Shown here: positions 1 through 24,860 of the stretch, one piece after another
Layout of the letters: every line of letters starts with the position of its first letter
Position numbering within the stretch: the first letter of the stretch is position 1
NCBI GenBank assembly: GCA_963741205.1
Contig: CAVUHW010000018.1
Span: forward strand, 32,001-96,000
Source of the DNA: Nitrospirota bacterium
GTDB taxonomy: Bacteria; Nitrospirota; UBA9217
Direction of reading: 5' to 3'
DNA length: 64,000 nt
Notes under the pieces: model-generated
What the model was told of the DNA's origin: nothing
The model's database searches: none
Seen by the model: only the letters and a program-made list of their open reading frames with translations
Translations under genes and position numbers: made by a program

Positions 1-878
1 GGCAAGGAGAGGAGGCCATTTGTCATCGGGATCCTCGCTACCGGAAGCACCTTCGGCGTTTCGCTCGCCTATCTCGTAGGCGGCTGGGTGAATCAGCACT
101 ATGGCTGGCGTTCCGCCTTTTACGTGGCCGGGATCCCAGGGATTCTGGTCGCCGTTCTCTTTTTGTTTACCGTAAAGGAACCACGCCGAGGGGCCTATGA
201 CCGGGCAAACTCACGGAAACGCAGCACGTTTAAGGAAACCATCGGTTTTCTCGCCGGATCCAGAGCCTACATCTTCGTGCTCATCGGGTTCAGCCTCATG
301 GGAATCAGCGTCCATGCCCAAAGCGTCTGGAGCGCCGCATTCCTGATCCGGGTTCATCATCTCAATTCCAGCTGGGCGGGAATATTGATCAGCATCGGAC
401 AGCTAATGACCCTGCCGGGATATCTGGCCGGCGGAGCGTTGGCCGAACGATTGGGACGCGCAAAGACGGGCGATGGAAGGTCTGGGTGCCGGCCTGGGCT
501 ATGCCCTGACTGCTCCCACAACCATGATCTTCCTGATGTCCGACTGCCGCGCTGGCCCTGCTTCGCAGGGCTTTGCTTGTCGTCATTTGTCGGCCCGTTC
601 ATTTCGGTCCCGTGTTGGCTGTCTGCATGAACGTTGCGAAGGTGCGCATGCGCGCGGTATCCTCGGCGACGCTGATGTTCTTTGGGAATATCGTTGGCCA
701 GATCGTAGGGCCATTGGGCGTGGGTTATCTCAATGACATCATGATGTCAGCATTCGGCGACCTCGCCATCCGATATTCGATGACCCTAGGGGCATTATGC
801 GCGCTGATTGCCGCTGCTATTACGTTGATGGGTTCGCGATATGTTGTGGGGGATACCAGGCGCGCCGCAGAAGCTTGA
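1..878 (+). CDS. MFS transporter (Spinster-like), 5'-partial, frameshifted near 470-570
   Basis: ORFs 88..630 and 573..878; GWRSAFYVAGIPG..EPRRG motif and successive TM helices. Confidence 0.8.
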
Positions 879-9673: not shown

Positions 9674-11041
9674 TTATTGCTCTGCTCGTCCCGACTCCCT
9701 GAGTTTCCTCTTAAGAGTGGACAGGGAGATTCCCAGGACCTTGGCGGACTTAGTCAGATTCCCGGAGAGCGATGTAAGGGCGCACTGGATGGTCTCCTGC
9801 TCCACCTCCGCGAGGGTCTTAAAACTATTGCCGGACGATGAAGCGGCCTTCGGCATGCACATATTCACGGCTCCGGGTCTCCCGAGAAGAAGCGAAGGCG
9901 TAAGGACCGAGTCCTTTTGCAGGAACAGCGCACGCTCAAGGATGTTCCGCAGTTCGCGCACGTTGCCAGGCCAGTCGTATAGCTGGAGCTTCGCAAGCTC
10001 CGTTTCGGGCAATTCGACGCTCCGTCCCCGCGTGATCTTCGAGAGCAGGTAGGAGCAGAGCTGGGGGATGTCCTCCCGGTGCTCCCGTAGCGGCGGGATA
10101 TGGATGCGGACCACGCTCAAGCGGTAGTACAGGTCCTTGCGGAAGGTCTTTCCGAGCGCGCTTTCCAGTTCCGCGTTCGTCGCGGCGATTACGCGCACGT
10201 TTACGGGCGTGACGGCCGTGCTGCCGATGCGGCGCATGGTCCCTGTCCTCGAGGACCCCCAGGAGCTTGGACTGGAGGTGAATGGGCATGTCGCCGATCT
10301 CATCCAGGAAGACCGTGCCGCCTTCGGCCACTTCAAAGAGGCCTTTTTTCGCGCCCGCAGCGCCGGTAAAGGCGCCTTTTTCGTGGCCGAAAAGCTCGGC
10401 CTCGATCAGGTTTTCCGGCAGTGCGGCGCAGTTGATGCTGACGAAGGCGGAGCCCCCGAAGGGGCTCTTGTAGTGGATCGCCTTTGCCACGAGGTTTTTA
10501 CCGGTGCCGGTCTCGCCGGTAATCAGGACCGGCCCGTCCATTTCCGAGGCCATGTCTACGAGCGTGAGGACCTCGGCGAAGGCGCCGCTTGCCCCCGACG
10601 ATGACCGCCGTCTCGCGGTCCTTTTCGCGGGCAGTAGTTCTGGATCTGCTCCACCCGCTCCAGGTCAAGGGTCCTGAGGGTGTTGTCGACCGTGAGTTTG
10701 AGCTCTTCGATATCGAAGGGCTTCGACAGGTAGTCATGCGCCCCCAGGCGCACCGCTGTCACGGCGTTTTCAAAACTGGGATAGGCGGTAACGAAAATAA
10801 TCTTGGACTGGTCGTTCCTTTCGAGGATGGCCGGGGCAAGGGCGTGCCCTTCCCCGTCGGGAAGCTTCTGGTCCAGAAGGACGATATCTATCTTTCTTTC
10901 GGCGCAGACCGCAAGCCCATCGGCGCTCGTATGCGCGGCCAGGACCTCAAGCCGGTCGTTTTCGAGGTAATCCCGCACGTTATCGCACAATACCTTTTCG
11001 TCGTCGATGATGAGGAGCGTCTTTCTGCTGACTGGCGGCAT
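9674..11041 (-). CDS. NtrC-family sigma54-dependent response regulator, frameshifted
   Basis: REC; [30 protein letters not shown]; Fis HTH. Confidence 0.92.
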
Positions 11042-11064
11042 GGTGTCCCTCCGGAAAGACACTT

Positions 11065-11206: not shown

Positions 11207-11288
11207 AGCCACGATAAAAGCACTGTCAGTTTACAAATCACGAACAAGTTCCAATATCCAAGAATCAAATGCTAGCTGCTTATGCATC

Positions 11289-12814
11289 CTAGTTGCCCAC
11301 TTGAACAGGGGCGTTTTTTCCTTCCGTGGTGCCATCCCCCAACTGACCATGACTGTTCCCTCCCCATGACCATGGGGTGCCGTCCAGATTTCAATACCAG
11401 GCTATGCATGGCTCCGGTAGAGATTGAGACCCACTTTGTATCCGTCCCTATCCGGACAGGGGAATTCTTATTTTCCGTGGTTCCGTCCCCCAACTGTCCA
11501 CTGTTGTTGAACCCCCATGCCCACAGGGTGCCGTCCTTTTTCAAAGCTATTGAATGATGACTTCCTGCCGAAACTTTGGTCCACATGGTATCCGTCCCGA
11601 TCCGGACCCGGGGATGTCTTATCTGTTGTTGTACCGTCACCAAGCTGCCCATAGTCATTATATCCCCACGCCCATAGCGTGGAGGTTGCCAGGCAGCCAT
11701 CGCACAGATACAGGGCCAGGGTATGATAATCTCCCGCCGAGACTGCAACCCACCTGGCTTCCGTCCCGATCCGGATCGGAGCGGTTTTAGCCGCCGTAGT
11801 CCCGTCTCCCAACTGCCCATGCGAGTTATTTCCCCACGCCCACAGGGTCATGTCCTTTTTCAGGGCCACGGTATGAAAAGCCCCGGCCGAAACCCTGGCC
11901 CATGCGGCATCCTTCCCTATTTGGACAGGCGCGGTTTTGTCGATTGTCGTGCCGTCCCCCAACTGTCCATCAGAGTTATTTCCCCATGCCCACAACGTAC
12001 CGTCGGACTGCAAGCCCACGCTGTGAAGATCTCCAGCCTCGATTTCAATCCATTTTTTGTCTTTTCCTATCCGGACAGGTACGGTTTTATCCGCTTTCGT
12101 TCCGTCTCCCAACTGTCCGTGGGAGTTATTTCCCCACGCCCACAAAGTGCCGTCGGATTTCAACGCCAGGCTGTGGTCCCGTCCCGTCGCGATTGCGACC
12201 CACTTCATGTCTTTCCCGATCCGGACGGGAATTGTTTTGTCCGCCTTCGTGCCGTCCCCCAACTGTCCATGGGAGTTATTTCCCCACGCCCACAGAGTGC
12301 CGTCGGATTTCAGGGCCAGGGAATGTGCCGCGCCGGATGCCACCGGTTCACTCCTCGCGATGAGGATCCGGCTCCCCGCAAGGGAGTTGTTGCTCTCGTT
12401 AGATTCAGCGACTTGATTTCGATAGTCCGCGACAGCTCCGATGTAATAGACGCCCGCATTCACGGAGATGAGGTTTGTCCTGTAGACGAATGAATCCGCC
12501 TCCCCCGCTTTCAGGGAGTCCGTCTCGTTTCCCTTCGGAGATCCTATCCGGAAATCGCTCGTTGTGATGACAGGGCCTGTTGAGAGGAAAAATCCGGTCC
12601 TGAAGTAGCCCGCGTCGCCGTCGCCCTGATTCTGCACGGTGGCCGTTATTGTTACGAGGTCTCCGGGGGCTATAATTGACGGGGACGCGGAGATCGAGGT
12701 CACGACCAGATCCGGGGAACCGGCGGCCGCGACGCGGGGCGAGAATAGAAATATAAGAAAGAGAATAAAGAACGAAAGTATCTGGCCTTTCGAAAATACG
12801 CGCATGCCATGCAT
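11289..12814 (-). CDS. Secreted CARDB + RCC1-repeat protein, frameshifted near 3' end
   Basis: Signal peptide; [19 protein letters not shown] (CARDB); about seven [25 protein letters not shown] repeats. Confidence 0.9.
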
Positions 12815-12847: not shown

Positions 12848-12947
12848 CTCCCTCTCCTTCAAGGAGAGGGCTGGGGTGAGGATGGGTCAACAGCGGGAGA
12901 CACGAGACCCATCCCCCTCTCGATCTCCCCCTTGAAGGGGGAGAAGG
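12848..12947. repeat. Pair of REP-like palindromes (CCCTCTCC..GGAGAGGG..GGATGGG type)
   Basis: Two inverted copies here; related pair at 36132-36223. Confidence 0.6.
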
Positions 12948-14193
12948 TTAATTCGTCGGCACGTTCCTGATCTGCCCCCTGATTTCTCCGTCGGGATTGG
13001 CCGCGGTGTGAATGTTCAGATACAGCCTGTCGCTGATCAACGAGCCGAGTCGTTCCGCGCTCAGGAAGGTATCTGCTGGAACGTGTCCAGGTCCCCGACG
13101 TGCTGGGTGTTCCCCACCCTGCAGAGCTAATGAGGGTCGGCCCGTTCACCCCCGCAAAACCTTGATGGATGTGCGCACGGTCCGCGAGGCTGCTCGGCGT
13201 GTTGAACGCGATCGATCCGCTAATCTTTCCGGTCCCCAGGTTGACGGTCAGATTCCCCGTGCCGCTGCTGACCGGCGCGTTCACGGGCGGCACTTCCTGG
13301 TTGCCGGAGAGCGACACGGCCGGGATGGTCGTGACCGGATAAACGATGTTCCCCGCGAGTTCGCTTACGGGAAGCTGGAAGTTTTGTGAGTTGACGGTGA
13401 AATAGAGGCCGTCATTCACCAGGGCCGTGAGCTGCGGGGCGTTCAGGGACGCGCCTGCCGGAAAGGTAAAGGTTCCCGCTGTCGTGCCACCACCCTCCAA
13501 GGTGATGATGGATGGAGTTGTCGGACCGCAGGTGGATGTGCGCCTCCGTGGCATTGCTCGTGAGGCCGGAGAAAGTTATAGACCCGCTGATCGCTCCAGT
13601 CCCGAGGTTGACCGTCATGGTAGCTGAGCCGGCCCCCGTGCTCCCCGTGCCCGCGACAGGAGTCAGCGGCGTCGTTATGGTGATGTTCGGTAACACGATA
13701 TCACCGCGTTTTGCGTTCGGAAAAGATTGCGTGTCGACCCGGAAGAAGAGCCCGCCGAACCCGAGGGCGCTCAGCTGCAATTGGTTCAGGACTTCGTGCC
13801 CGCCGGAACGGTCCATGCCCCTGTTGTGCTGGTGCTGCTGACGAGGGAGACGATGAGACTTGTTGCGGGAGCCGCTGTGCTGTCATGGATGCCAACCGCG
13901 AGCGTGGTGCTCGAGAGTCCTGAAACCAGAACTGCTCCCCCGATCTCACCGTTATCCATATTTGCCGCAAGCTTCCCAATGGCCGTGCCTGAAGCGGGCG
14001 CCCCGGTCGTGGTCAGCATCGATGTTGTGAACGCGACGAGCCGCGCTGCTGTGCCGACAGGTGTAGGCGTCGGAGGCACGGGCCCTCCGCCTCCGCCGCC
14101 GTCCCCGCCGCTGCTGCAGGATACAATAAATACGGCCGATATGAGGAACGCGCTCAGTGCAATCGCAAATTTTACGAAACTATGCTGCTTCAT
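12948..14193 (-). CDS. CHRD-domain lipoprotein, frameshifted
   Basis: Lipobox IVS-C; LSGNQEVPPV, AHIHQG, GLYFTV and terminal HT..NP.GEIRGQI CHRD signatures; two to three repeats. Confidence 0.8.
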
Positions 14194-14541: not shown

Positions 14542-16771
14542 CTACTGAGTCGTGAACGTCATCACTGGCGTCGCGGCCACGCCCTCTTTGCCGTCATCGG
14601 CTTCCATTTTCCAGAAGTAGGTCACATTCGGCGAAAGACCCTCCACCTTGAAGGTAAGGTCGGTCGACACGGCCGTCGCAGCCGTGCCACTGCTGCTCTT
14701 GCTGTGGCACGAAGCAATGAACAGACCGGAGACGACCAACACTGCGATCATGCAGAAGTATTCTCTTTCTGCCCTTGAAGCCGAAGGCGAAGCCCAGCCC
14801 GAACAGGGTAAACAGCATGCCCGCGCTGTAGACGCTCGCGTAGTAGACGCCCTTCGCTTGAGCGGTCGCCGGCGTGATCTTCACATCCTGGACGCAATTA
14901 GGCGGCGTACCGATGAAAGCCTGGTTATTGCAAACGAACAGGTGATATGCGATCGTGTCCCCGTCCTGGTCAACCGAAGGCTTCCACCGCAGGACAACAG
15001 GCCTCGCCACCCCCGTTGCTCCGTTTGCCGGGGCCACTATCTCCGGGGCCAGGGGCGCGAAGTTGGTAATGAAATTGATCACCTGACCCACCGCGAGCGC
15101 GTTGCTCGCGAAATCGAGAGCTCCAGTGGTAACCGTGACCGTGTATGCAGTGCCGAAGGCCAGCGGCCGCGTCGGCGTGAACGTGGCGACATCACCGGCG
15201 ACTGTCACCGTCCCATCCACGGGAATGCCTCCGGAGGTTACCTGCATCACGCTGTTGGTGATGGAGGTCGAAAGCATCGGCTCGCTGAAGGTCACGGTAA
15301 TCGGCTCGTCGGTCACCACTCCGGTGGCGTTGTCGGGCGGGTCGAACACGGCTATCGTCGGCGGGGTCCTGTCGGGCACTGTCGCGGTGAAGCTGATGGT
15401 GACGGCAGTGCTCAAGGGGTTCCCGACGAGGTCGGTCATGCCGGTCGTCGTCTGGGCGGTTATGACGGTGCCGACCAATGCCGTTTCCTGGGCTACGGGA
15501 AGGGCAATGGACGCGGTTTTGTTCGCATCGCTATACACCGGTGTGCGGCTAGCGCGGTAGTGACGCCGCTATTGTTCGATAGTCACCGTGAAGGTCGTTG
15601 CATTGATCGTTGCCGGGTCCATCGACTCGCTGAAGGTGGCCGTTATGTTGATGTTGGCGGGCGCGGTCGGCGTGGTGGGAAACGTGGACAGCACCGAGGG
15701 CGGGATCGCATCGATAATGCCCGTTATCGGAGCTACGGTAACGCTCGGGACCGTTCCCACAGTAGCGGAAACTAAAACGGTCGCGGTCCTGGCCACCGGA
15801 CCGGCCGCCGCGCCGCTGAAGACCACGTTAAAGGTGCAATTGCCGGCCGGGGCAATGGTACTGGTGGGCGGAGTCAAACAGGGGCTTGCGGGATCAATCA
15901 CAAAATCCGCGGCGTTCGCCCCCTGCGAGATTATTGAAGCGATAGTCAGCGGGCTCGCCGCGTTCAGGTTTGTCACGGTTACCGTGGCCGTCGCTGTTGA
16001 AAACGGAGCAGGGCGCTGCGCCGGGAAGGCTATGGTTGAGGGCGTAACCGACATCCCGATCACTTTCCCCTCGAGGATGAACGTATTTGCCGTTGCATTA
16101 AGCGCTCCCGCAATGGTCACGGAGGTAACGGGAGTTCCGGTGACGGCAACGGGCGTGACGGAATTCCCGATGTAGACATTTCCGTCCGGAGACTTTACCA
16201 GGCCCGCGGCAGTCTGGAGAAACGGCCCGATGCGTCCTCCCAGCGCTCCGGTAAAGACGCCGGCTGCAAGGCCGATGTCCTCCGTGAAATTGATCCCCTT
16301 CAGCCGGATCGGCAGTGATCGTATCAACGCCGTAAGGATGAGTGACGGTTATTGTGCCCGCCAGCACATCTCTATTCCTTATCCTTATCCTCGCGAACGT
16401 AACCTGGTCCCCGGCGCGGACCACGCCGTTGGCAAAAGAAAACTCAAGCGCCGCAATGTAGAGCATTTTCGGGATCCACGAAGCTGGCGCTGGCGAAAAA
16501 ATAGAAACCTTCTCCCGGGAAGTTAAGGGGAATAGCGAGGGGCAAGGCCGGATCGAAACCCGGGGCAGCCACCATGGTATTGGCGCAGAACCCGTTGTTA
16601 TCGAAGCACGGCGCGAGCGAAAGCCCGGTGGCGTCCTGGTAGAACGCCGGGAATCGTGGTCGCGGGATCGACGGGGCCCACCGTCGTCAGCGCCGCATGG
16701 GACGTCGGCGCGAAAACGAGGGACAACAGCAACATCGCCACGAATGGAACTATTTTAAACTTTGTACGCAT
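14542..16771 (-). CDS. Secreted Ig-like (Big_5-type) repeat protein, paralog 1, frameshifted
   Basis: Signal MRTKFKIVPF..SHA; ITATFSESMDPATI and ITVTFSEPM repeats; C-terminal FN3-like region with internal TM and lipobox. Confidence 0.8.
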
Positions 16772-16835
16772 GGCGCATCCTCCTCTCAATTGCATGATGG
16801 TTGAGGCGAACTAAACTTTTCAACCATTTAAATAT

Positions 16836-16851
16836 AGCAAGAGTAATACCA
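16836..16851 (-). promoter_or_regulatory. sigma54 promoter
   Basis: Minus strand TGGTATTACTCTTGCT. Confidence 0.7.
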
Positions 16852-16925
16852 GACACGGTTGCTTTCTATTTCCCCTGTTGTTATAGAAACTTATAAGACA
16901 AGCGACTCTTATTTTGATGCACTCT

Positions 16926-16952
16926 GTCCATTATGAACAGTCCATTTTAAGC
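16926..16952. promoter_or_regulatory. Putative enhancer (tandem GTTCA-N3-TGAAC-like)
   Basis: gtccattatgaac-a-gtccattttaagc. Confidence 0.6.
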
Positions 16953-17129
16953 AACACTATTCGTTTTGGTTGCATTTTTTAAACCGGCTATGGTTTAAAA
17001 CGGAATTCTGCTTCCTAATAAATTTTACCACATCAGCGTTTGATTTACACTGGCAACAAGTACCTGTTTCGGAATTAAAGATCACACCAATTCCAATCCA
17101 TGGTGGAGCTTCCGCGTCTTTACATAAAA

Positions 17130-17159
17130 GAGAAGCCGGGACATCTTCCCCGGCTTCTT
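17130..17159 (-). terminator. Terminator hairpin after Ig-repeat gene 2
   Basis: agaagccggga...ccccggcttct; paralogous to the hairpin at 14474. Confidence 0.6.
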
Positions 17160-17198
17160 GCTCTGGTTCAAATCTGTCCTGTGATGAAGCGACACGGG

Positions 17199-19461
17199 CT
17201 ACTGCGTTGTGAACGACATAACAGGGGTCGTGGTCACGCCTCCCTTGCCGTCATCGGCTTCCATTTTCCAGTAGTAGATCACATTCGCCGCAAGACCATC
17301 TACCTGGAAGGCAAGTTCGGTCGGAGCCGGCGGAGCCGAATTATCGCTGCTACTGCTGCACGAGACGATGAACAAGCCGCTGATTACCAGCACCGCGATC
17401 ATCAGGAGTATCTTCTTCCTGCCCTTGATGCCTGCGGCAAAGCTCAAACCGAACAGGGTGAACAGCATGCCCCCGCTGGCAACGCTTGCATAGTAGATTC
17501 CCTTCGCACTCGCGGCCGTCGGCGTAATGGGCTCGTTCTGTCTGCAATTAGGGGCAGAGCCGATGAAGTTCTGGTTATTGCACAGGAACAGGTGATAGGT
17601 TACCACGTCCTGGTCCTGATCGGACGAAGGTTTCCACCGCAGAACAACCGGCCTCCCCACTCCCGTTGCACCGTTCGCCGGTGACACGACCTCCGGCGCT
17701 ACGGGCGCGAAGTTCGTGACGAAGTTGATCACCGGACTCACTCCCGGCGATGACGCCGCCAGGGCGTTCCTCGCCAGGTCGACAGGTCCGGCCGAGAGCG
17801 TGATCGTATAGGCAGTGCCGAATTCCAACGGCCGCGCCGGGGTGAACGCAGCAATCGCTTTATTGTTCACCTCGTCATTGGTGGTTGTCACCGTACCATC
17901 TACCGCGACGCCGTTGACGGTGAGCTTTATCGTGGTGCCGGTGATGGAGGTCCCCAGCATCTGCTCGCTGAAGGTGACGGTGATCGGCAAATCGGTCCGA
18001 ACTCCGGTTGCATTGTTAATCGGGTTGACCGAAGATATCGTCGGTGCTACCCTGTCAGCAGCCGAAGCGGTGAAGGTGAAGGTGAGCGCTGACAAGGGAT
18101 TTCCGACCACGTCGGTCATGAGGGTAGTCGTCTGGGCGGTTATGACGGCCGTTTCCGTCAGGTCAGCATTCGGAGTAAAAGTCGCCGTATTGTTCGCTGC
18201 ATCGTACGCCACGATACCCTGGACCGGGGTCCCGTTGGAAAGCACCGTGAAGCTCGTGGCGGGGCTGATGATCGTTGCCGGATCCATGGCTTCGCTGAAC
18301 GTGGCCGTTATGGTCATGTTGGCGGGCGCTTTGGCAATGTCGGGAAAATGAGAAAGCACCGTGGGCGGAACCGCATCGATTGTCCCGATAATCGGCGTAA
18401 CGAAGGCCTTCGGAACTGTGGCCAATGTTGCGTTAATTGTAACGGTCCCGGTCCTGGCCGCCGGCCCGGCTGCTGCGCCGTTGAAGATCACGTTGAAGGT
18501 GCAGGAACCGGTACCGCCAGACTAACTGGAATAACAGGCGCGGTCAAACAATCGACGTCAACAACCTTGAAAATCCGGTACGTTCGGAGTTATCGTGGCG
18601 ATAGTCACAGTGTTCACCGTAGTTCAGGTTGGTCACTGTTACCGGGACCGGCGGCACTGAATCTATCGCGGGGCGCTGCGCCGGGAAGACTATTGTTGTG
18701 GGCGTTACCGACATCCCGAGTACTTTCCCCTCGAGTGTGAACAGGTTTGTCGTGCCGCTGATCGGTCCCGCAACGGTAAAGGAATTAGGATTGGGAGCTA
18801 CGGCTCCGGTGACGGTAACGAGCGCGATGGAATCCCCCACGTAGACATTCCCATCCGGAGATGTTATTAAACCGGTGGCTTTCCTGAGAAAGGGCCCGAC
18901 GCGTCCTCCCAGCGTTCCGTCAAAGGCGCCGTTGACAGGAAGGATATCTTCCGTGAATCCGAGCCCCTGGTTCTTCGCAATGTTGTCCGGTGTGACAGTG
19001 ACCGTATCAACACCGAAAGGATGAGTCATAACATAGTCGCCCGCCACTATAGCGGGGTTGCGTCTATTAGTGAATCTTATCCTGGCAAACGTAACCTGAG
19101 GGGGTACCGTAGGGCCGGCGGGCAGTAATGCAAACTCCAGCGCAGCTATGTAGAGAGTCCCATCCGGCTGAGAGGTGGCAGTGGAGTAAAAATAGAAACC
19201 TTCTTCCGGGAAATTCGTGGGAAAAACAGCTGGCAGGGCTGGATCGAAAGCCGGACCCGCCACCGCGGTGATGGAGCAGAACCCGTTGTTATCGAAACAC
19301 GGCGCGAGCGAAAGTCCGGTGGCATCCTGGTACCACGCAGGGACCCGGGTTGCCGCGTCCGTCGGCCCCACCGCGGTCAATACCGCATGGGACGTGGGCG
19401 CGAAAACGAGGGACAACAGTAACATTATCAGTAATGGAACTATCTTAATCCTTGTACGCAT
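17199..19461 (-). CDS. Secreted Ig-like repeat protein, paralog 2, frameshift ~18500-18600
   Basis: ORFs 18544..19461 and 17199..18491; collinear with paralog 1. Confidence 0.85.
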
Positions 19462-19882: not shown

Positions 19883-21573
19883 TTATTGTGAAATATGGTA
19901 TTTTTCGATGTTCCGGTAAAGCGTCTTCCGGTCCATGCCGAGGAGCCTTGCCGCTTTCGCCTTGTTCCAGGCGGTCTTCTCGAGGGCCCGGAGGATCGCC
20001 TGTGCATCGACGTTCCCGGTCGCTCCCCGGGAAGCGTCTCCGGCCTCCCGAGAGGCGGTAAGATGAGAAGGCAGGAGCTCGGCGGTAATCGTGTCCGCGC
20101 GGCAGAGGATAAAGGCGTGCTCCAGGGCGTGCTTCAACTCCCGCACGTTGCCGGGCCAGGGGTAGTTCATGAAGATCTTTTCCACCTCGGCCGACACAGC
20201 GTCAATCTGCTTATGAAATTTCGCGTTGAACTGCTTCAAATAGTGCTCCACCAGAAGAGGAATGTCTTCTTTTCTGTCCCGCAGAGGCGGAAGGGACAAC
20301 TCCACGACCTTCAGACGGTAGTAGAGGTCCTCCCGGAACTCGCCCCGCTTCACCTTTTCCTCGAGGTCCTTGTTGGTGGCGGCGATGACCCGGACATCCA
20401 CCCTGAGCGGCTTCGAGTCTCCCACGCGCTCGAACTCCTTTTCCTGGAGCACCCGGAGGAGGCTCGACTGCATCCTCGGCGAGATGTCGCCGATCTCGTC
20501 CAGGAAAATGGTGCCCCCGTCGGCCTTCTGGAACCTTCCGATCCGGTCGCTTACGGCCCCGGTAAAGGCGCCCTTCACGTGTCCGAAGAGTTCGCTTTCA
20601 AGGAGATTCTCCGACAGGGTCGAGCAGTTCACCTTGACCAGGGGCTTGTCTTTCCGCCCGCCCATGAAGTGCAATGCCTCGGCGACAAGCTCTTTCCCCG
20701 TCCCGCTTTCCCCGGTGATGAGGACGGTGGTCTCGACGTCGGCAAGACTCTCGATGAGGGAGTAAACTTCTGCATCCGCTCGCTGACGCCGACCAGGTTA
20801 TGGAACCGGCGGCGCTCATGGAGGTCTTGTTCGAGAGAGGCGAGGCGCGTTTCATCCCTCACCACCATGACGGCGCCCGTGAACAGACCCTGCCGGTCGA
20901 TGAGAGGATAGGTGGAAAAGGTGAGAATTTTCGGGGTGCGCGCGCCCTGGGCGCATTCGAAACGCTCTATCCTCACGGACTTTCTTTCCGCGACGGTCTC
21001 TTTCAGCGCACCCAGAAACTTCTCTTTGCAGTGCATCGACGAGGCGGCCAGGTCCCGGCCGATATCCTCGCGGGAAAGACCGCAGATCTTCACGGCGGCG
21101 TCATTCATTTCGAGCACCGTAAGATCCTTGTCCACGGTCAGGATGCCGTCTTCGACGCTCCGGAAAACCGCATCAAGGTGCGCGCGGTATCTTTCATTTT
21201 CCTTGAGCACTCTCGTGTGCTCCAGTGCCAGGCGGGTGATGTGGAGCAGCGCTTCCTGTTCCACGGGCTTCGGAAGGTAATCGAATGCCCCGAGGCGTAC
21301 GGCCTCGGCTGCGGTCTCAACGGTGGGATAGCCGGTGACCATCACGACCGGACAGATGAGGTTTCTCTCCCTCGTCTCGCGCAGGATATCGATCCCCGTC
21401 CTGCCTCCCAGAATGATGTCCGAAAATATGAGATCGAAGTTCTTTTCGGAAATCCTCGCGAGCCCCTCGGCGTAGTTCGACGCGGTAGTCACCGCATGAC
21501 CTTCCTCGGAGAGAAAACTCGCAAAGGTGTATCTGATGCTTTCCTCGTCGTCGATTACCAGAATCTCAGCCAT
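19883..21573 (-). CDS. sigma54-dependent regulator REC-PAS-AAA+-HTH, frameshifted ~20700-20770
   Basis: REC; PAS ([13 protein letters not shown]); [15 protein letters not shown]; WPGNVRELK; Fis HTH. Confidence 0.92.
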
Positions 21574-21649
21574 GTCTACCTCCCTTGGAAAAATCGTGAT
21601 TTGGACGATAGAGGACGCGGACTGTCGCAAGGGTGATGGATGTGATAAT

Positions 21650-23205
21650 TTATACGCCTATCGGACACTTCTCACTTCGTTTCTCTTCCGTCATTCTCTG
21701 CGCATCTCTGCGTCTCCGTGCAATCTCACGTCGTATTTTCGCTCGCTCTGTCGTCCCTGCCGCGGGCAGGTCGATAAGGACCTTCGTATATGCTCCCTGG
21801 ACGCTCTGTACGGCCAGCTTGCCGCCGTGATCGGCGACGATCCCGTGACTGATGGAGAGCCCGAGACCGGTCCCCTCGCCCTTGGGCTTGGTGGAGAAGA
21901 AGGGATTCATGATCTTGTCCAACGCGTCGGGCGCTATGCCGATGCCGCGGTCATGAAAGGTGATGCGGACGAAAGAACCGTCATCGGTCGCTGACCTCTT
22001 CGCAGTTGATATCGAGGGCCTTGTCTTCGTGTTCTCCCGGATACTTCTGATGCAAGGCATACTGGGCGTTGTTGATAATGTTCATGAACACCTGCTGGAT
22101 CTGCTGTGGATTCGCCGTTATTTCGGGCAGGCCTGGCGGAAGGTCGATCCGTAAATGCACCCCTTCCTTCCTCATCTGCGACTCCGTGAGGATGAGGGCC
22201 TCGCGGAGGATGTTCTCCACGCGCACGGGCCTTTTTTCTTCTTTTCTGTCCCGGGCGAAGGAGAGGAGGCTCTTGACGATGCCGGCGATGCGGCGTCCTT
22301 CTTTGGATATCCTCTCGGCCACGTCGTTTTCGGCGCTTCCCTTGACGCTCTTGTTCGACAGGATCCTGGCGTAATTGATGATCCCGTTTATGGGATTATT
22401 GATCTCATGGGCCACACCGGCCGCGAGTTTGCCGATCGATGCGAGATGCGCGGCCCTGAGCGTTTCGACCTGCAGGGCGATATTGCGAGCAGTGGCGGTC
22501 CTTATCCTTTGGTCCATTTCCTCATTCGACCTCTGCAGCGCCTGTTCAGCCCGCCTGCGCCCGAGTTCCCGATGATAAAGCCCGACCATCGATACCATCA
22601 CGATCAAGGCCCATATGAGAACAGTGATGAAGAAGAGACGTTTCGTCTCGGCCTGGTCGTTCAAACGGTCCTTCTCGACGGCATATTTCGAGGGCCCGGG
22701 CGTTTCTCTGGAATTCATTGAATACAGCGTTGAACCGGTCATCCAGGGCGGATCCGGTTCCTCCCCCACGCTCCAGGTCCCGGGAGCGTTTTTGGGCAAG
22801 ATCCTTCAAACTGTCAAGGTGGAGTCTGATGTTTCTCGCAAGCTCGATAAAGGCGGGATCTTCGAAGGGGACAAGATGTGTGCCGTTTTCCGCTGCTCCG
22901 CCGAACAGGAGCGCATCTGAAAATTTAATGGCTTCATCGATATCCGTAAAGGACTTCTCCACGTCCTCTCTCGCACCTTCTGCAATGGCCTCTTCAAACC
23001 AGAGATGAAAGGTCGCCGTCCGCACCTGGATGTCCATGATGTCATCGACATATTCGAAAGCCATCTTCTGTCTCTCCGCGATCGAAAAACAGCCAGAAAA
23101 GCATGACAATCGAGAGGATTCCCAGGAGGAATACCGCCGTGGGCATCCAGTACCACTGCCTGAATATTTGATGACCTTTCACCGGTGATCTCCAGACGTC
23201 TTCAT
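21650..23205 (-). CDS. Membrane sensor histidine kinase (HisKA, NtrB type), frameshifted
   Basis: AGVAHEINNP H-box, QQVFMNIINNA, GEGTGLGLSISHGI; periplasmic FHLWFEE domain. Confidence 0.85.
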
Positions 23206-23206
23206 A

Positions 23207-24860
23207 TGAATAACCCGCCCCTGAACCATTTACATGGTTGCAGTGGGGGTTTCACGGATCATAGAAGCATGCAGTCCCTGAGTAGTTCCCAAGGCCTGTC
23301 TTATCTGCCTCTCCCCGCGCGTGACTTCGGCCGGTTCCCGGCCTAGTTTTTCCTTCTTCCTTAGCCGCATGGCGCGCTTGTGATACTTTACGGCAATTTC
23401 GCCGGACACAAGCATTTTTATGCCGCGCTTCTTGATAACGATAGACGCATTGGTATCGGCGTTTTCCGTAAAGCCACAGCTCTGGCAATCGAACACCGCC
23501 TGTGACTGGCGATTGTCCGGGTGAGTGTGCGAACACTTCGAACACTCCTGTGAGGTGCCGTGCGGCGGTATGGCGATAACGAGCTTGTTGCGTCGTGAGG
23601 CTTTGTACGTCGTAAAGAGTTTTACCTTGCCCCACGCTGATTCGAGTATGGACTTGTTGAGACCGGCCTTGGCCTTTGCCCCGTTCGCAATATACGTCCC
23701 GCCGGCTGACTTCTTAGGTTTTGGCGCTCTGGTCATGTTCTTGACCTTGAGGTCCTCGAAGACGAACACCTCTGCGGGTGAATCCACGAGCTTGCGGCTG
23801 GCCTTATGCGCGAAATCATGCCTCACGTTGGCAGCATACGCCTGGCACCGGGCTGATTTCGCAACTGATTGCCTAAAGCGGCCGGATCCTTTGCTCCGCC
23901 TCGCCATTTGCCTCTGATATCTCTTCTTCCGGGCATCCTTTTTTAACAGACGCTCTTGTTGGATGCTGGAGAAGTCATACATAAATCCGTCGCTCGTTGC
24001 CAGCGGGATTTTCACCCCTCGGTCCATTCCCAGGGCAACGGTATTGAGACTCTCTGATGACATGCCGCCGTAAAGCTCGAGAAGTTCCTGCTCGCTTAAA
24101 ACTGCGCCTTGCTTCTCATAGGAGAAGGAGACATACCATTTCCCGGACTCCCGGGAAATGGTGATAGCCGCCGGAACCTCGTACTCATCATGAGCCTTGA
24201 ACTTAAGTTCGCCCAGATCGACCGACTTCGTGCCAAGCATCAGCCGGTGCTCATATATTGTTTTGTCTTGCCGCTGTTTTGAGCCTCCAGTAGGAACGAA
24301 CCTGAACAGCTCGCTGGTAATCCAGACGGACTGCCGTCCTGCCTTCTTTTTATAAGCAGGGCGACCAGCCAGTCCTGTCAGGTACCTCTTGCAGGCGCCC
24401 ATGAACCTGGTTGCGCCATTCCTTAGGATATGAGACGGCACATCATACAGAAACGGGGCGAGTTTCTTGTCCTTGAACTGGGCGTATTGCTGATCAATCG
24501 GCGGCTGTAGTCCGGTTAGCGACAGTGAATGATTCCGGAAAGTACGGAAATAACGCTCCTCGGCAACCTTGGCGTTGTAGATAAACCGCTGGCAGCCCAT
24601 CCACTGCGCGAGAATATCGGGCTGCTCCGTTGTCGGGTAGCAACGGAATTTTATGCCGCTTGAAAATCGCCATATCTCTAATATAGGTGATGAATCCTGA
24701 TAGTGCAACTCAATAATACGCTGCAGCCATCGGTACTATATTATAAGATTGCATATCGTTTCGTAGCACAGACAACGCACCAATCCACATCCAAAACAAG
24801 TCCGCTTGACCCCCTCCTGGCGCTTCACCCCTAGCAGGGGGAATGCGCGGACTTTAGTTC
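23207..24860 (-). mobile_element. IS200/IS605-family element carrying tnpB, with a possible tnpA remnant
   Basis: tnpB ORF; the minus-strand right end reads ..ggcgggttaTTCA; hairpin-forming left-end region ~24810-24860; boundaries inferred. Confidence 0.7.
23230..24708 (-). CDS. tnpB: TnpB RNA-guided endonuclease
   Basis: KFRCYPT N-terminus; RuvC GMDRG, FEDL, NADTNA; zinc finger CSKC..CQSC; true start possibly 24673. Confidence 0.93.
   Translation of the reverse strand: MHYQDSSPILEIWRFSSGIKFRCYPTTEQPDILAQWMGCQRFIYNAKVAEERYFRTFRNHSLSLTGLQPPIDQQYAQFKDKKLAPFLYDVPSHILRNGATRFMGACKRYLTGLAGRPAYKKKAGRQSVWITSELFRFVPTGGSKQRQDKTIYEHRLMLGTKSVDLGELKFKAHDEYEVPAAITISRESGKWYVSFSYEKQGAVLSEQELLELYGGMSSESLNTVALGMDRGVKIPLATSDGFMYDFSSIQQERLLKKDARKKRYQRQMARRSKGSGRFRQSVAKSARCQAYAANVRHDFAHKASRKLVDSPAEVFVFEDLKVKNMTRAPKPKKSAGGTYIANGAKAKAGLNKSILESAWGKVKLFTTYKASRRNKLVIAIPPHGTSQECSKCSHTHPDNRQSQAVFDCQSCGFTENADTNASIVIKKRGIKMLVSGEIAVKYHKRAMRLRKKEKLGREPAEVTRGERQIRQALGTTQGLHASMIRETPTATM

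Follow-up and report, generated by a model that had tools for sequence, protein, structure and literature searches.

A fibronectin type III domain split by a predicted membrane hairpin with an internal lipobox, a candidate C-terminal anchoring module of exported bacterial proteins

Lipoprotein processing is understood as an N-terminal event, and the locus described here raises the question of whether a lipoprotein signal could also work from within the last domain of an exported protein. The window that we analyzed is a 64,000-nucleotide stretch of a genome assigned to a Nitrospirota bacterium (GenBank assembly GCA_963741205.1, contig CAVUHW010000018.1, positions 32,001 to 96,000). Its minus strand carries two tandem paralogs, here called genes A and B, each ending in an FN3-like domain whose halves are separated by two hydrophobic helices, a short basic loop, and a lipobox Cys. 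An initial annotation, made from the letters alone, had read this arrangement as an internal lipoprotein signal that anchors a protein to the cell surface. We find that the module is conserved across phyla, in the last domain of unrelated exported proteins, and that it is best explained as a C-terminal membrane-anchoring cassette, an FN3 sandwich with a predicted two-helix membrane hairpin in its C'-E loop. Helix 2 is probably an internal lipoprotein signal, through which Lgt and LspA would yield a two-chain, lipid-anchored FN3 domain.

The 173-residue terminal module of gene A is read through in a single frame (open reading frame [ORF] 17199..18491; all features of genes A and B are on the minus strand), and the continuous architecture described in the initial annotation is therefore real. 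The N-terminal half of the FN3 domain comprises strands A, A', B, C, and C' (module residues 1 to 72; 17505..17720), assigned by structural alignment and an AlphaFold model with a pLDDT of 87 to 98. It is followed by a Gly-rich helix 1 (residues 74 to 98; 17427..17501), modeled as helical at residues 83 to 95, which resembles a stop-transfer segment and is predicted to lie N-out/C-in. The next five residues, KGRKK (17412..17426), form a loop whose net charge predicts a cytoplasmic location and which would double as the n-region of the internal lipoprotein signal. Helix 2 (17361..17411; model residues 102 to 116) represents, from its conservation, the h-region of this predicted type II signal and ends in the lipobox residues I-V-S, directly ahead of the invariant Cys (module residue 121; 17358..17360). 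A Ser- and Pro-rich linker of probably flexible character (17319..17357) leads to the C-terminal FN3 half, strands E, F, and G (17202..17318; pLDDT 92 to 98), and to the stop codon at 17199..17201. Gene B contains the same parts, with the lipobox IASC in place of IVSC and its Cys codon at 14707..14709, so both Cys codons lie where they had been placed. Both paralogs thus carry these parts, as noted earlier, but the reading frame of gene B is split by one extra base at 14752.

How an FN3-like domain normally looks can be read from its unsplit relatives. When the proteins that we had fetched were pooled and searched with a hidden Markov model of the module, 84 unique full-length matches were obtained, namely, one unsplit tandem and 83 unique split modules, which extends the split architecture well beyond the window. 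The module profile also matched 18,896 proteins at an E value of ≤1e-3 among 1.84 billion representatives, and the best 150 of these matches are nearly all giant unsplit tandem-repeat proteins that align in two stretches each (profile positions about 1 to 55 and 125 to 167). The size of the split family was counted by genome searches, as a profile search of the representative set is unable to count split modules. We read the unsplit repeats directly in four loci (L004, L005, L016, and L019). They are of the Pfam fn3 or Ig_Rha78A_N type found in very large surface proteins and share the sequence signature of both module halves, but their C'-E connection is about 70 residues shorter and contains neither helices nor a Cys. 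Between the Tyr of strand C and the YYW motif of strand F, the median spacing is 34 residues in 683 unsplit repeats (145 proteins), compared with 103 residues (range, 88 to 114) in the 77 of 83 split modules where it is measurable. The split modules therefore hold an insertion of about 70 residues in the C'-E loop of a domain that is normally contiguous, as had been assumed from the start.

Structure prediction places the two halves in one domain. An AlphaFold2 model built from a 36-sequence alignment has a mean pLDDT of 83.1, with both FN3 halves at 87 to 98, and the insert appears as two helices (residues 83 to 95 and 102 to 116; pLDDT, 52 to 72) whose hairpin protrudes from a single FN3 sandwich; a run with 20 sequences gave the same picture. 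Aligned with VIA-align, model residues 2 to 173 superimpose on single FN3 domains, such as NCAM FN1 and neogenin FN6, over 92 to 98 residues with Z scores of 9 to 10.7 and root mean square deviations of 2.4 to 3.2 Å, and Foldseek is in agreement. In these models the halves thus co-fold, with the insert present, as one seven-strand FN3-type beta-sandwich, as the initial annotation had predicted. The model and the topology of FN3 domains also suggest that neither half should fold alone, with strands E to G of the C-terminal half pairing with both sheets. Folded as separate chains, the halves scored 0.51, compared with 0.00 for the best of three controls, and thereby passed the mark of the test. 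For comparison, this mark was passed by 58 of 80 solved complexes and by 2 of 110 mismatched pairs. Passing scores of ≤0.60 were obtained for 7 of the 80 solved complexes and for both of the passing mismatches. The pass lends weak support. The partner pLDDT was 69 or higher, and contacts agreed between runs to 87% or more, but the pass may merely mirror the likeness of the halves to solved FN3 folds. Curated FN3 sequence models gave weak partial matches below their cutoffs (Pur_ac_phosph_N, positions 57 to 93 of 93; E value, 0.0022), and a relative of the module gave a weak partial match to fn3 (positions 42 to 82 of 84; 3.6e-6). The nearest clusters in the ESM Atlas are ordinary FN3 proteins at 0.80 to 0.82, under the level that counts.

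Conservation within the insert is concentrated on the lipobox. We tallied 38 representatives below 60% pairwise identity (median, 36%) out of the 83 unique modules. The Cys is kept in all 83 modules, and hence in all 38 representatives. Every one of the 83 modules also has S, G, or A at position -1, with S in 20 representatives and A and G in 9 each. The Cys and the lipobox are conserved across phyla. L, F, or I occupies position -3 in 30 of the 38 representatives, and G, S, or H, but never D, occupies position +2. Entropy is 0 bits at the Cys column, while the other positions of helix 2, which spans 15 to 21 residues, range from 2.2 to 3.1 bits. The basic loop has a net charge of +2 to +6 in every representative, and residues +2 to +13 after the Cys are 24% G, 20% S, 12% A, and 12% P. 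The same lipobox repertoire and G/S-rich tails characterize the ordinary N-terminal lipoproteins of this genome (97 ORFs selected by a crude regular expression). Either helix has the hydrophobicity needed to cross a membrane (median Kyte-Doolittle values of 1.70 and 2.37), and the two differ in their Gly fraction (0.22 in helix 1 versus 0.06 in helix 2). A loose pattern of two hydrophobic residues, Ala, and Gly or Ser precedes helix 1 in 25 representatives. When all six-frame ORFs of at least 120 amino acids in the 4.27-Mb genome were scanned with a domain-blind regular expression (helix, basic loop, helix, lipobox Cys, and G/S tail), it matched four times, each time in a split module.

The split module occurs on many exported proteins of sediment bacteria. 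The 83 unique modules come from Nitrospirota, Deferrimicrobiota, Thermodesulfobacteriota, and the window's own phylum. Besides the window's own, 25 of 27 database proteins contain the module in one frame over the whole queried region at 57 to 89% identity, and the same layout recurs at 30 to 38% identity in metagenome-assembled genomes of a Nitrospirota bacterium, a Deferrimicrobiaceae bacterium, and a "Deltaproteobacteria" bacterium and in several metagenome contigs. At least seven copies are present in the window's own genome (contigs C18, C5, C43, and C10). Among 41 genomes of relatives, 10 have a match and 9 the whole module; in a sample of the phylum, the corresponding numbers are 25 and 23 of 301 genomes, with carriers in 17 of 229 high-quality genomes and 18 of 121 genera and up to five matches per genome other than the window's. 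One carrier is cultured, Geopsychrobacter electrodiphilus (Thermodesulfobacteriota), whose protein WP_020677382.1 is annotated only as "S8 family serine peptidase."

The position of the module is as constant as its Cys. In all 108 redundant matches it ends 0 to 5 residues from the end of the protein, with one module per protein, and the lipobox lies 50 to 70 residues from the C terminus of carriers that range from 330 to over 3,000 amino acids. The passengers ahead of it are mutually unrelated and include Big_5, HYDIN/ASH Ig-like, glucose/sorbosone dehydrogenase (GSDH), Peptidase_S8, NHL propeller, PA14/MopE, and TSP3/HYR domains, and all complete N termini that we examined look like Sec type I signals. 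Genes that end in the module are often tandem or clustered paralogs, with two adjacent at L011:4702-8271, three on one contig at G236:C109, and further clusters at G197:C24 and G099:C19. Two loci looked at first like a natural two-gene version of the module, which we rejected, as neither is convincing. In L063 (G100:C214) the module is frameshifted within the A-rich codons of the basic loop, where the run of lysine codons is a slippery spot, and L064 (G083:C29) is a shortened piece that retains only helix 2 to the C-terminal half behind unrelated sequence. Both are probably errors or remnants.

We propose the following route for the module. Sec would export the protein by its N-terminal type I signal until helix 1 halts transfer, leaving the basic loop in the cytoplasm. 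Helix 2 would then reinsert N-in/C-out and carry the last 50 to 70 residues outward, allowing the FN3 halves to fold together at the outer face of the inner membrane. Helix 2 and the basic loop together would present a complete type II signal, with diacylglycerol added to the invariant Cys by Lgt and the chain cut before this Cys by LspA. The product would be two chains joined by a shared sandwich, one consisting of the passenger with strands A to C' and the other a lipidated peptide of about 50 residues (Cys, linker, and strands E to G). As the lipidated peptide would be the tail-end chain, the lipid would be placed at the tail end of the protein. The hairpin topology, the lipidation of the Cys, and the cleavage are steps that we infer from the sequence. 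The genome has the enzymes for lipoprotein maturation, namely, one LspA, two Lgt, and an Lnt that is in pieces, and from the Lol pathway it has LolA. The two Lgt paralogs are full length (C26:157274-158675 and C8:53313-54059), and one of them is an immediate neighbor of lspA; the genus commonly has two or three copies, with or without the module. The second copy was considered as a dedicated enzyme and rejected, given that the carriers G031 and G037 have one Lgt and many noncarriers have two or three.

Several observations weigh against this proposal. Lgt and LspA are not known to act on signals other than N-terminal ones, and helix 1, being joined to the n-region, might hinder both enzymes. 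At 15 to 21 residues, helix 2 is long enough for a stable membrane span, and the lipid looks redundant as an anchor if helix 1 stays in place. Seven of the 38 representatives have a noncanonical residue (A, V, T, N, or Y) at position -3, the hairpin itself is modeled at a pLDDT of only 52 to 72, and the two-chain folding test gives weak support only. No specific partner enzyme co-occurs with the module.

A rival reading is a plain hairpin anchor, in which the protein would stay a single uncut chain and the two helices would hold its FN3 domain, and thereby its passenger, at the inner membrane, with the Cys either unmodified or lipidated without cleavage. The hydrophobicity of both helices would suffice for this role, the basic loop fits the positive-inside rule, and the arrangement needs no extra enzyme, in keeping with none having been found. 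It leaves unexplained, however, why the Cys and a small residue at -1 are kept in 83 of 83 modules when the helices otherwise vary freely, and why the Cys is followed by a G/S tail of the lipoprotein type. Moreover, a correctly oriented lipobox is expected to be used where Lgt and LspA exist. We regard a plain hairpin as unlikely, and the internal lipoprotein signal remains the reading that we favor.

The initial annotation had gone further, proposing that the lipopeptide tethers the passenger once the hairpin is cut. In the full form of this model, LspA cleavage would be followed by a second cut in helix 1, made by a rhomboid or some other intramembrane protease. The passenger would then be held only via the lipopeptide and may reach the outer membrane or the surface by the Lol pathway or type II secretion. 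The main argument for this extension, which we consider doubtful as a whole, is that the lipid would be redundant were the hairpin to stay. A small, helix-weakening start is a trait of rhomboid substrates and of C-terminal sorting signals, and the Gly-rich composition of helix 1 and the pattern of small residues ahead of it agree with such a start, although that pattern is loose and missing in 13 of the 38 representatives. The segment also has a tripartite look, consisting of a motif, a helix, and a basic cluster, and its likeness to GlyGly-CTERM signals had been pointed out; the Gly-rich helix and the tripartite layout are in line with this, but no model of a CTERM signal matches. The absence of Asp at +2 and the presence of LolA also count in favor of the extension. 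A general rhomboid is encoded in 34 of the 41 relatives, including 9 of the 10 module-bearing genomes, but it is about as common without the module (25 of 31) and thus does not track it. In addition, MYXO-CTERM proteins are reported to reach the surface after Cys lipidation and helix removal (PMC11980579).

The searches for a partner enzyme tell against a cut in helix 1. NCBIfam release 20 gave no match at an E value of ≤0.1 for any of five ORFs and no CTERM model, bearing in mind that short models can miss. No exosortase was matched in the genome, and the rhombosortase model scored under its cutoff (27.9 bits versus 84), where a completeness of 84% means that absence is not proven. These exosortase and rhombosortase models are the basis on which no dedicated sortase was found; no search for CPBP proteases or myxosortase was made. 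A recurrent protease or transferase neighbor, and with it a conserved neighboring enzyme, was not found among 19 ORFs of the window and 67 ORFs around 10 other loci. The step by which a cut hairpin leaves the passenger tethered was itself inferred, and it has so far gained no support. A variant that dispenses with a dedicated enzyme can also be conceived, as a second route to a C-terminal lipid anchor: the hairpin lipobox would be processed by housekeeping Lgt and LspA, the lipopeptide of about 50 residues would be locked in the FN3 domain, and a general intramembrane protease would remove helix 1 before the Lol pathway, and possibly type II secretion, moves this "lipoprotein in trans" to the outer membrane or the cell surface. 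We view this route as a speculative extension that is unlikely to hold in full.

It is very improbable that the module reflects an artifact or decay, whether a frameshift, a fusion of neighboring genes, a pseudogene, or a C-terminal piece translated from an internal Met: indels do occur throughout the assembly, the break in gene B falls exactly between loop and helix 2, and L063 and L064 show a frameshift in the loop codons and a lone C-terminal piece, but gene A and each of the 83 unique modules, drawn from many assemblies, have a continuous frame free of internal stops, relatives lack the surplus base at 14752, neither FN3 half could be expected to fold alone from the model and FN3 topology, and no conserved internal Met was found in the representatives, position -14 being Met in only 4 of 38, which leaves the separate translation that the initial annotation had allowed for without backing.

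Compared with a canonical type II signal, the internal signal has the same basic n-region, an h-region of 15 to 21 residues, a lipobox with an invariant Cys, a G/S-rich tether, and, by prediction, the same N-in/C-out orientation. It departs from the canonical type in its position. Whereas a canonical type II signal is N-terminal, this one is internal, behind a separate type I signal, and lies 50 to 70 residues from the C terminus, following 400 to over 3,000 residues and a first helix and within a folded domain. In addition, a canonical signal peptide is discarded, while cleavage in the module would give two chains.

A domain made of two chains has a eukaryotic precedent. FnIII-2 of the insulin receptor family is an FN3 sandwich with a long loop insert that is cleaved by furin, so that one domain is formed from two chains. 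Our model aligned over 92 residues to 8guy_E (chain range 592..806), consistent with a long insert, and we take this entry to be an insulin-receptor type chain with the FnIII-2 insert domain. The eukaryotic insert differs in being soluble and cut by a protease of the secretory pathway, with no lipid or membrane hairpin.

Among bacterial C-terminal signals, helix 1 with its basic cluster resembles the motif-helix-Arg/Lys layout of the GlyGly-CTERM/rhombosortase, PEP-CTERM/exosortase, and LPXTG/sortase systems, with which the module also shares sorts of passengers, including HYDIN/ASH "choice-of-anchor D"-type proteins. Those tripartite signals are terminal, whereas helix 1 of the module is followed by a second helix with a lipobox and by 50 to 70 further residues; nor was there a hidden Markov model match or a cognate exosortase or rhombosortase in the searches given above. 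The closest functional analog is MYXO-CTERM. In this system (Guo, Haft, and Wall, mBio 2025; PMC11980579), a single C-terminal helix is preceded by an invariant Cys that is proposed to be lipidated. Lgt is discussed as a possible enzyme for this step, and myxosortase removes the helix; the authors themselves note the inverted topology and the lack of a lipobox. MYXO-CTERM proteins and carriers of the module are alike in being exported by Sec with an N-terminal signal, in combining a membrane helix with an invariant Cys and a cluster of basic cytoplasmic residues, and in the proposed outcome, a lipid anchor at the tail end. They differ in that MYXO-CTERM has its Cys before the helix, no defined lipobox, a dedicated CPBP protease, and a tag at the very end, while in the module the Cys follows the second helix in canonical orientation with a lipobox and is in turn followed by half a domain, and a dedicated protease was not found (no CPBP search was made). 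By this analogy, the module would reach the same end via a hairpin that keeps the canonical topology.

Outside subscription journals and supplements, the literature search returned no paper that describes a lipobox inside a protein or an FN3 anchor split in this way, and in a related preprint (Haft 2023; 10.1101/2023.06.07.544157) the words lipobox, Lgt, hairpin, fibronectin, lipoprotein, and internal each occur 0 times. The module looks like a means, so far undescribed, of attaching a protein to the cell envelope by its tail end, and its new part is that lipoprotein-type anchoring is shifted to the tail end and placed inside a domain. If true, the substrate range of Lgt and LspA would be widened, C-terminal anchoring signals would gain a new class that functions without a dedicated sortase, and the module would show that a natural domain can stay together although its chain is cut. 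The module escapes signal-peptide predictors and annotation pipelines, as illustrated by the Geopsychrobacter protein, and the cassette could serve surface display as a portable lipid anchor for the tail end. With one carrier, a nonpathogenic strain, in culture, the idea is directly testable.

Genes A and B share one layout, in which a Sec-type signal is followed by about 300 residues without a Pfam match, Big_5 Ig-like domains, and the terminal module. Gene A (17199..19461) encodes an exported protein of about 750 amino acids, whose frame is broken near 18491/18544 as assembled here, and its intact homologs are 725 to 750 amino acids long. Its N-terminal Sec type I signal peptide (19384..19461) is of the type seen in full-length homologs and, like that of gene B, ends in SHA, in agreement with the Sec signal noted earlier for these proteins. 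The Big_5 domain of gene A lies at 17748..18056 (PF13205; 7.7e-27), the better of two matched stretches. The region of about 300 residues between them (18544..19383 in gene A) matches nothing in Pfam or NCBIfam. It contains a conserved Cys-containing motif common to three tandem paralogs on contig C43 (C43:13908-21580), which have the split module at their ends as well, and this N-terminal region of genes A and B and the C43 paralogs is an undescribed passenger domain.

Gene B (14542..16795) lies in at least five frame pieces. The N-terminal FN3 half, helix 1, and the basic loop are encoded at 14753..15070, and helix 2, the lipobox, the linker, and the C-terminal FN3 half at 14545..14751, with the surplus base at 14752..14752 shifting the frame between loop and helix 2. 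In total, gene A has one frame break and gene B at least four. Overlapping frame pieces also occur in unrelated genes of the window (9674..11062, 11272..12814, 19883..21630, and 21981..23109), where two sigma-54 activators, an RCC1/CARDB protein, and a histidine kinase are broken, and elsewhere in the genome in lnt (C45:75282-76330). Single-base indels are evidently frequent in this assembly, and any frameshift here is to be distrusted. The base at 14752 is absent from two related metagenome contigs of run X4 (depth, 7.62 of 11.7), which also lack single bases near other breaks of gene B (15546, 15583, and 16470); the contigs of this run represent relatives at 82 to 95% likeness and not the same strain. 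A search of sequencing runs with sampled words found a fraction of at most 0.11 present in any run. Because unrelated genes are broken alike and the related contigs lack the surplus bases, we read the frame breaks as assembly indels or recent decay and not as biology.

The gene adjoining gene B (12859..14193, minus strand) encodes a CHRD-domain lipoprotein in three frame pieces. Its ordinary N-terminal signal (in the piece at 13786..14193) ends in FIVSC followed by a G/S run and is nearly identical there to the region around the internal lipobox in genes A and B. At three loci (window 19883..23109, L035:2666-6717, and L003:5652-8163), module-bearing genes are adjoined by genes for a histidine kinase and a sigma-54 response regulator. 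Such two-component genes recur near module loci yet are common in these genomes, which are rich in regulators of this kind, and the neighborhood may be a coincidence. Farther along the window, an apparently intact IS605-type OrfB/TnpB gene with a Cas12f1-like TNB domain (23230..24708, minus strand) encodes a protein of 492 amino acids.

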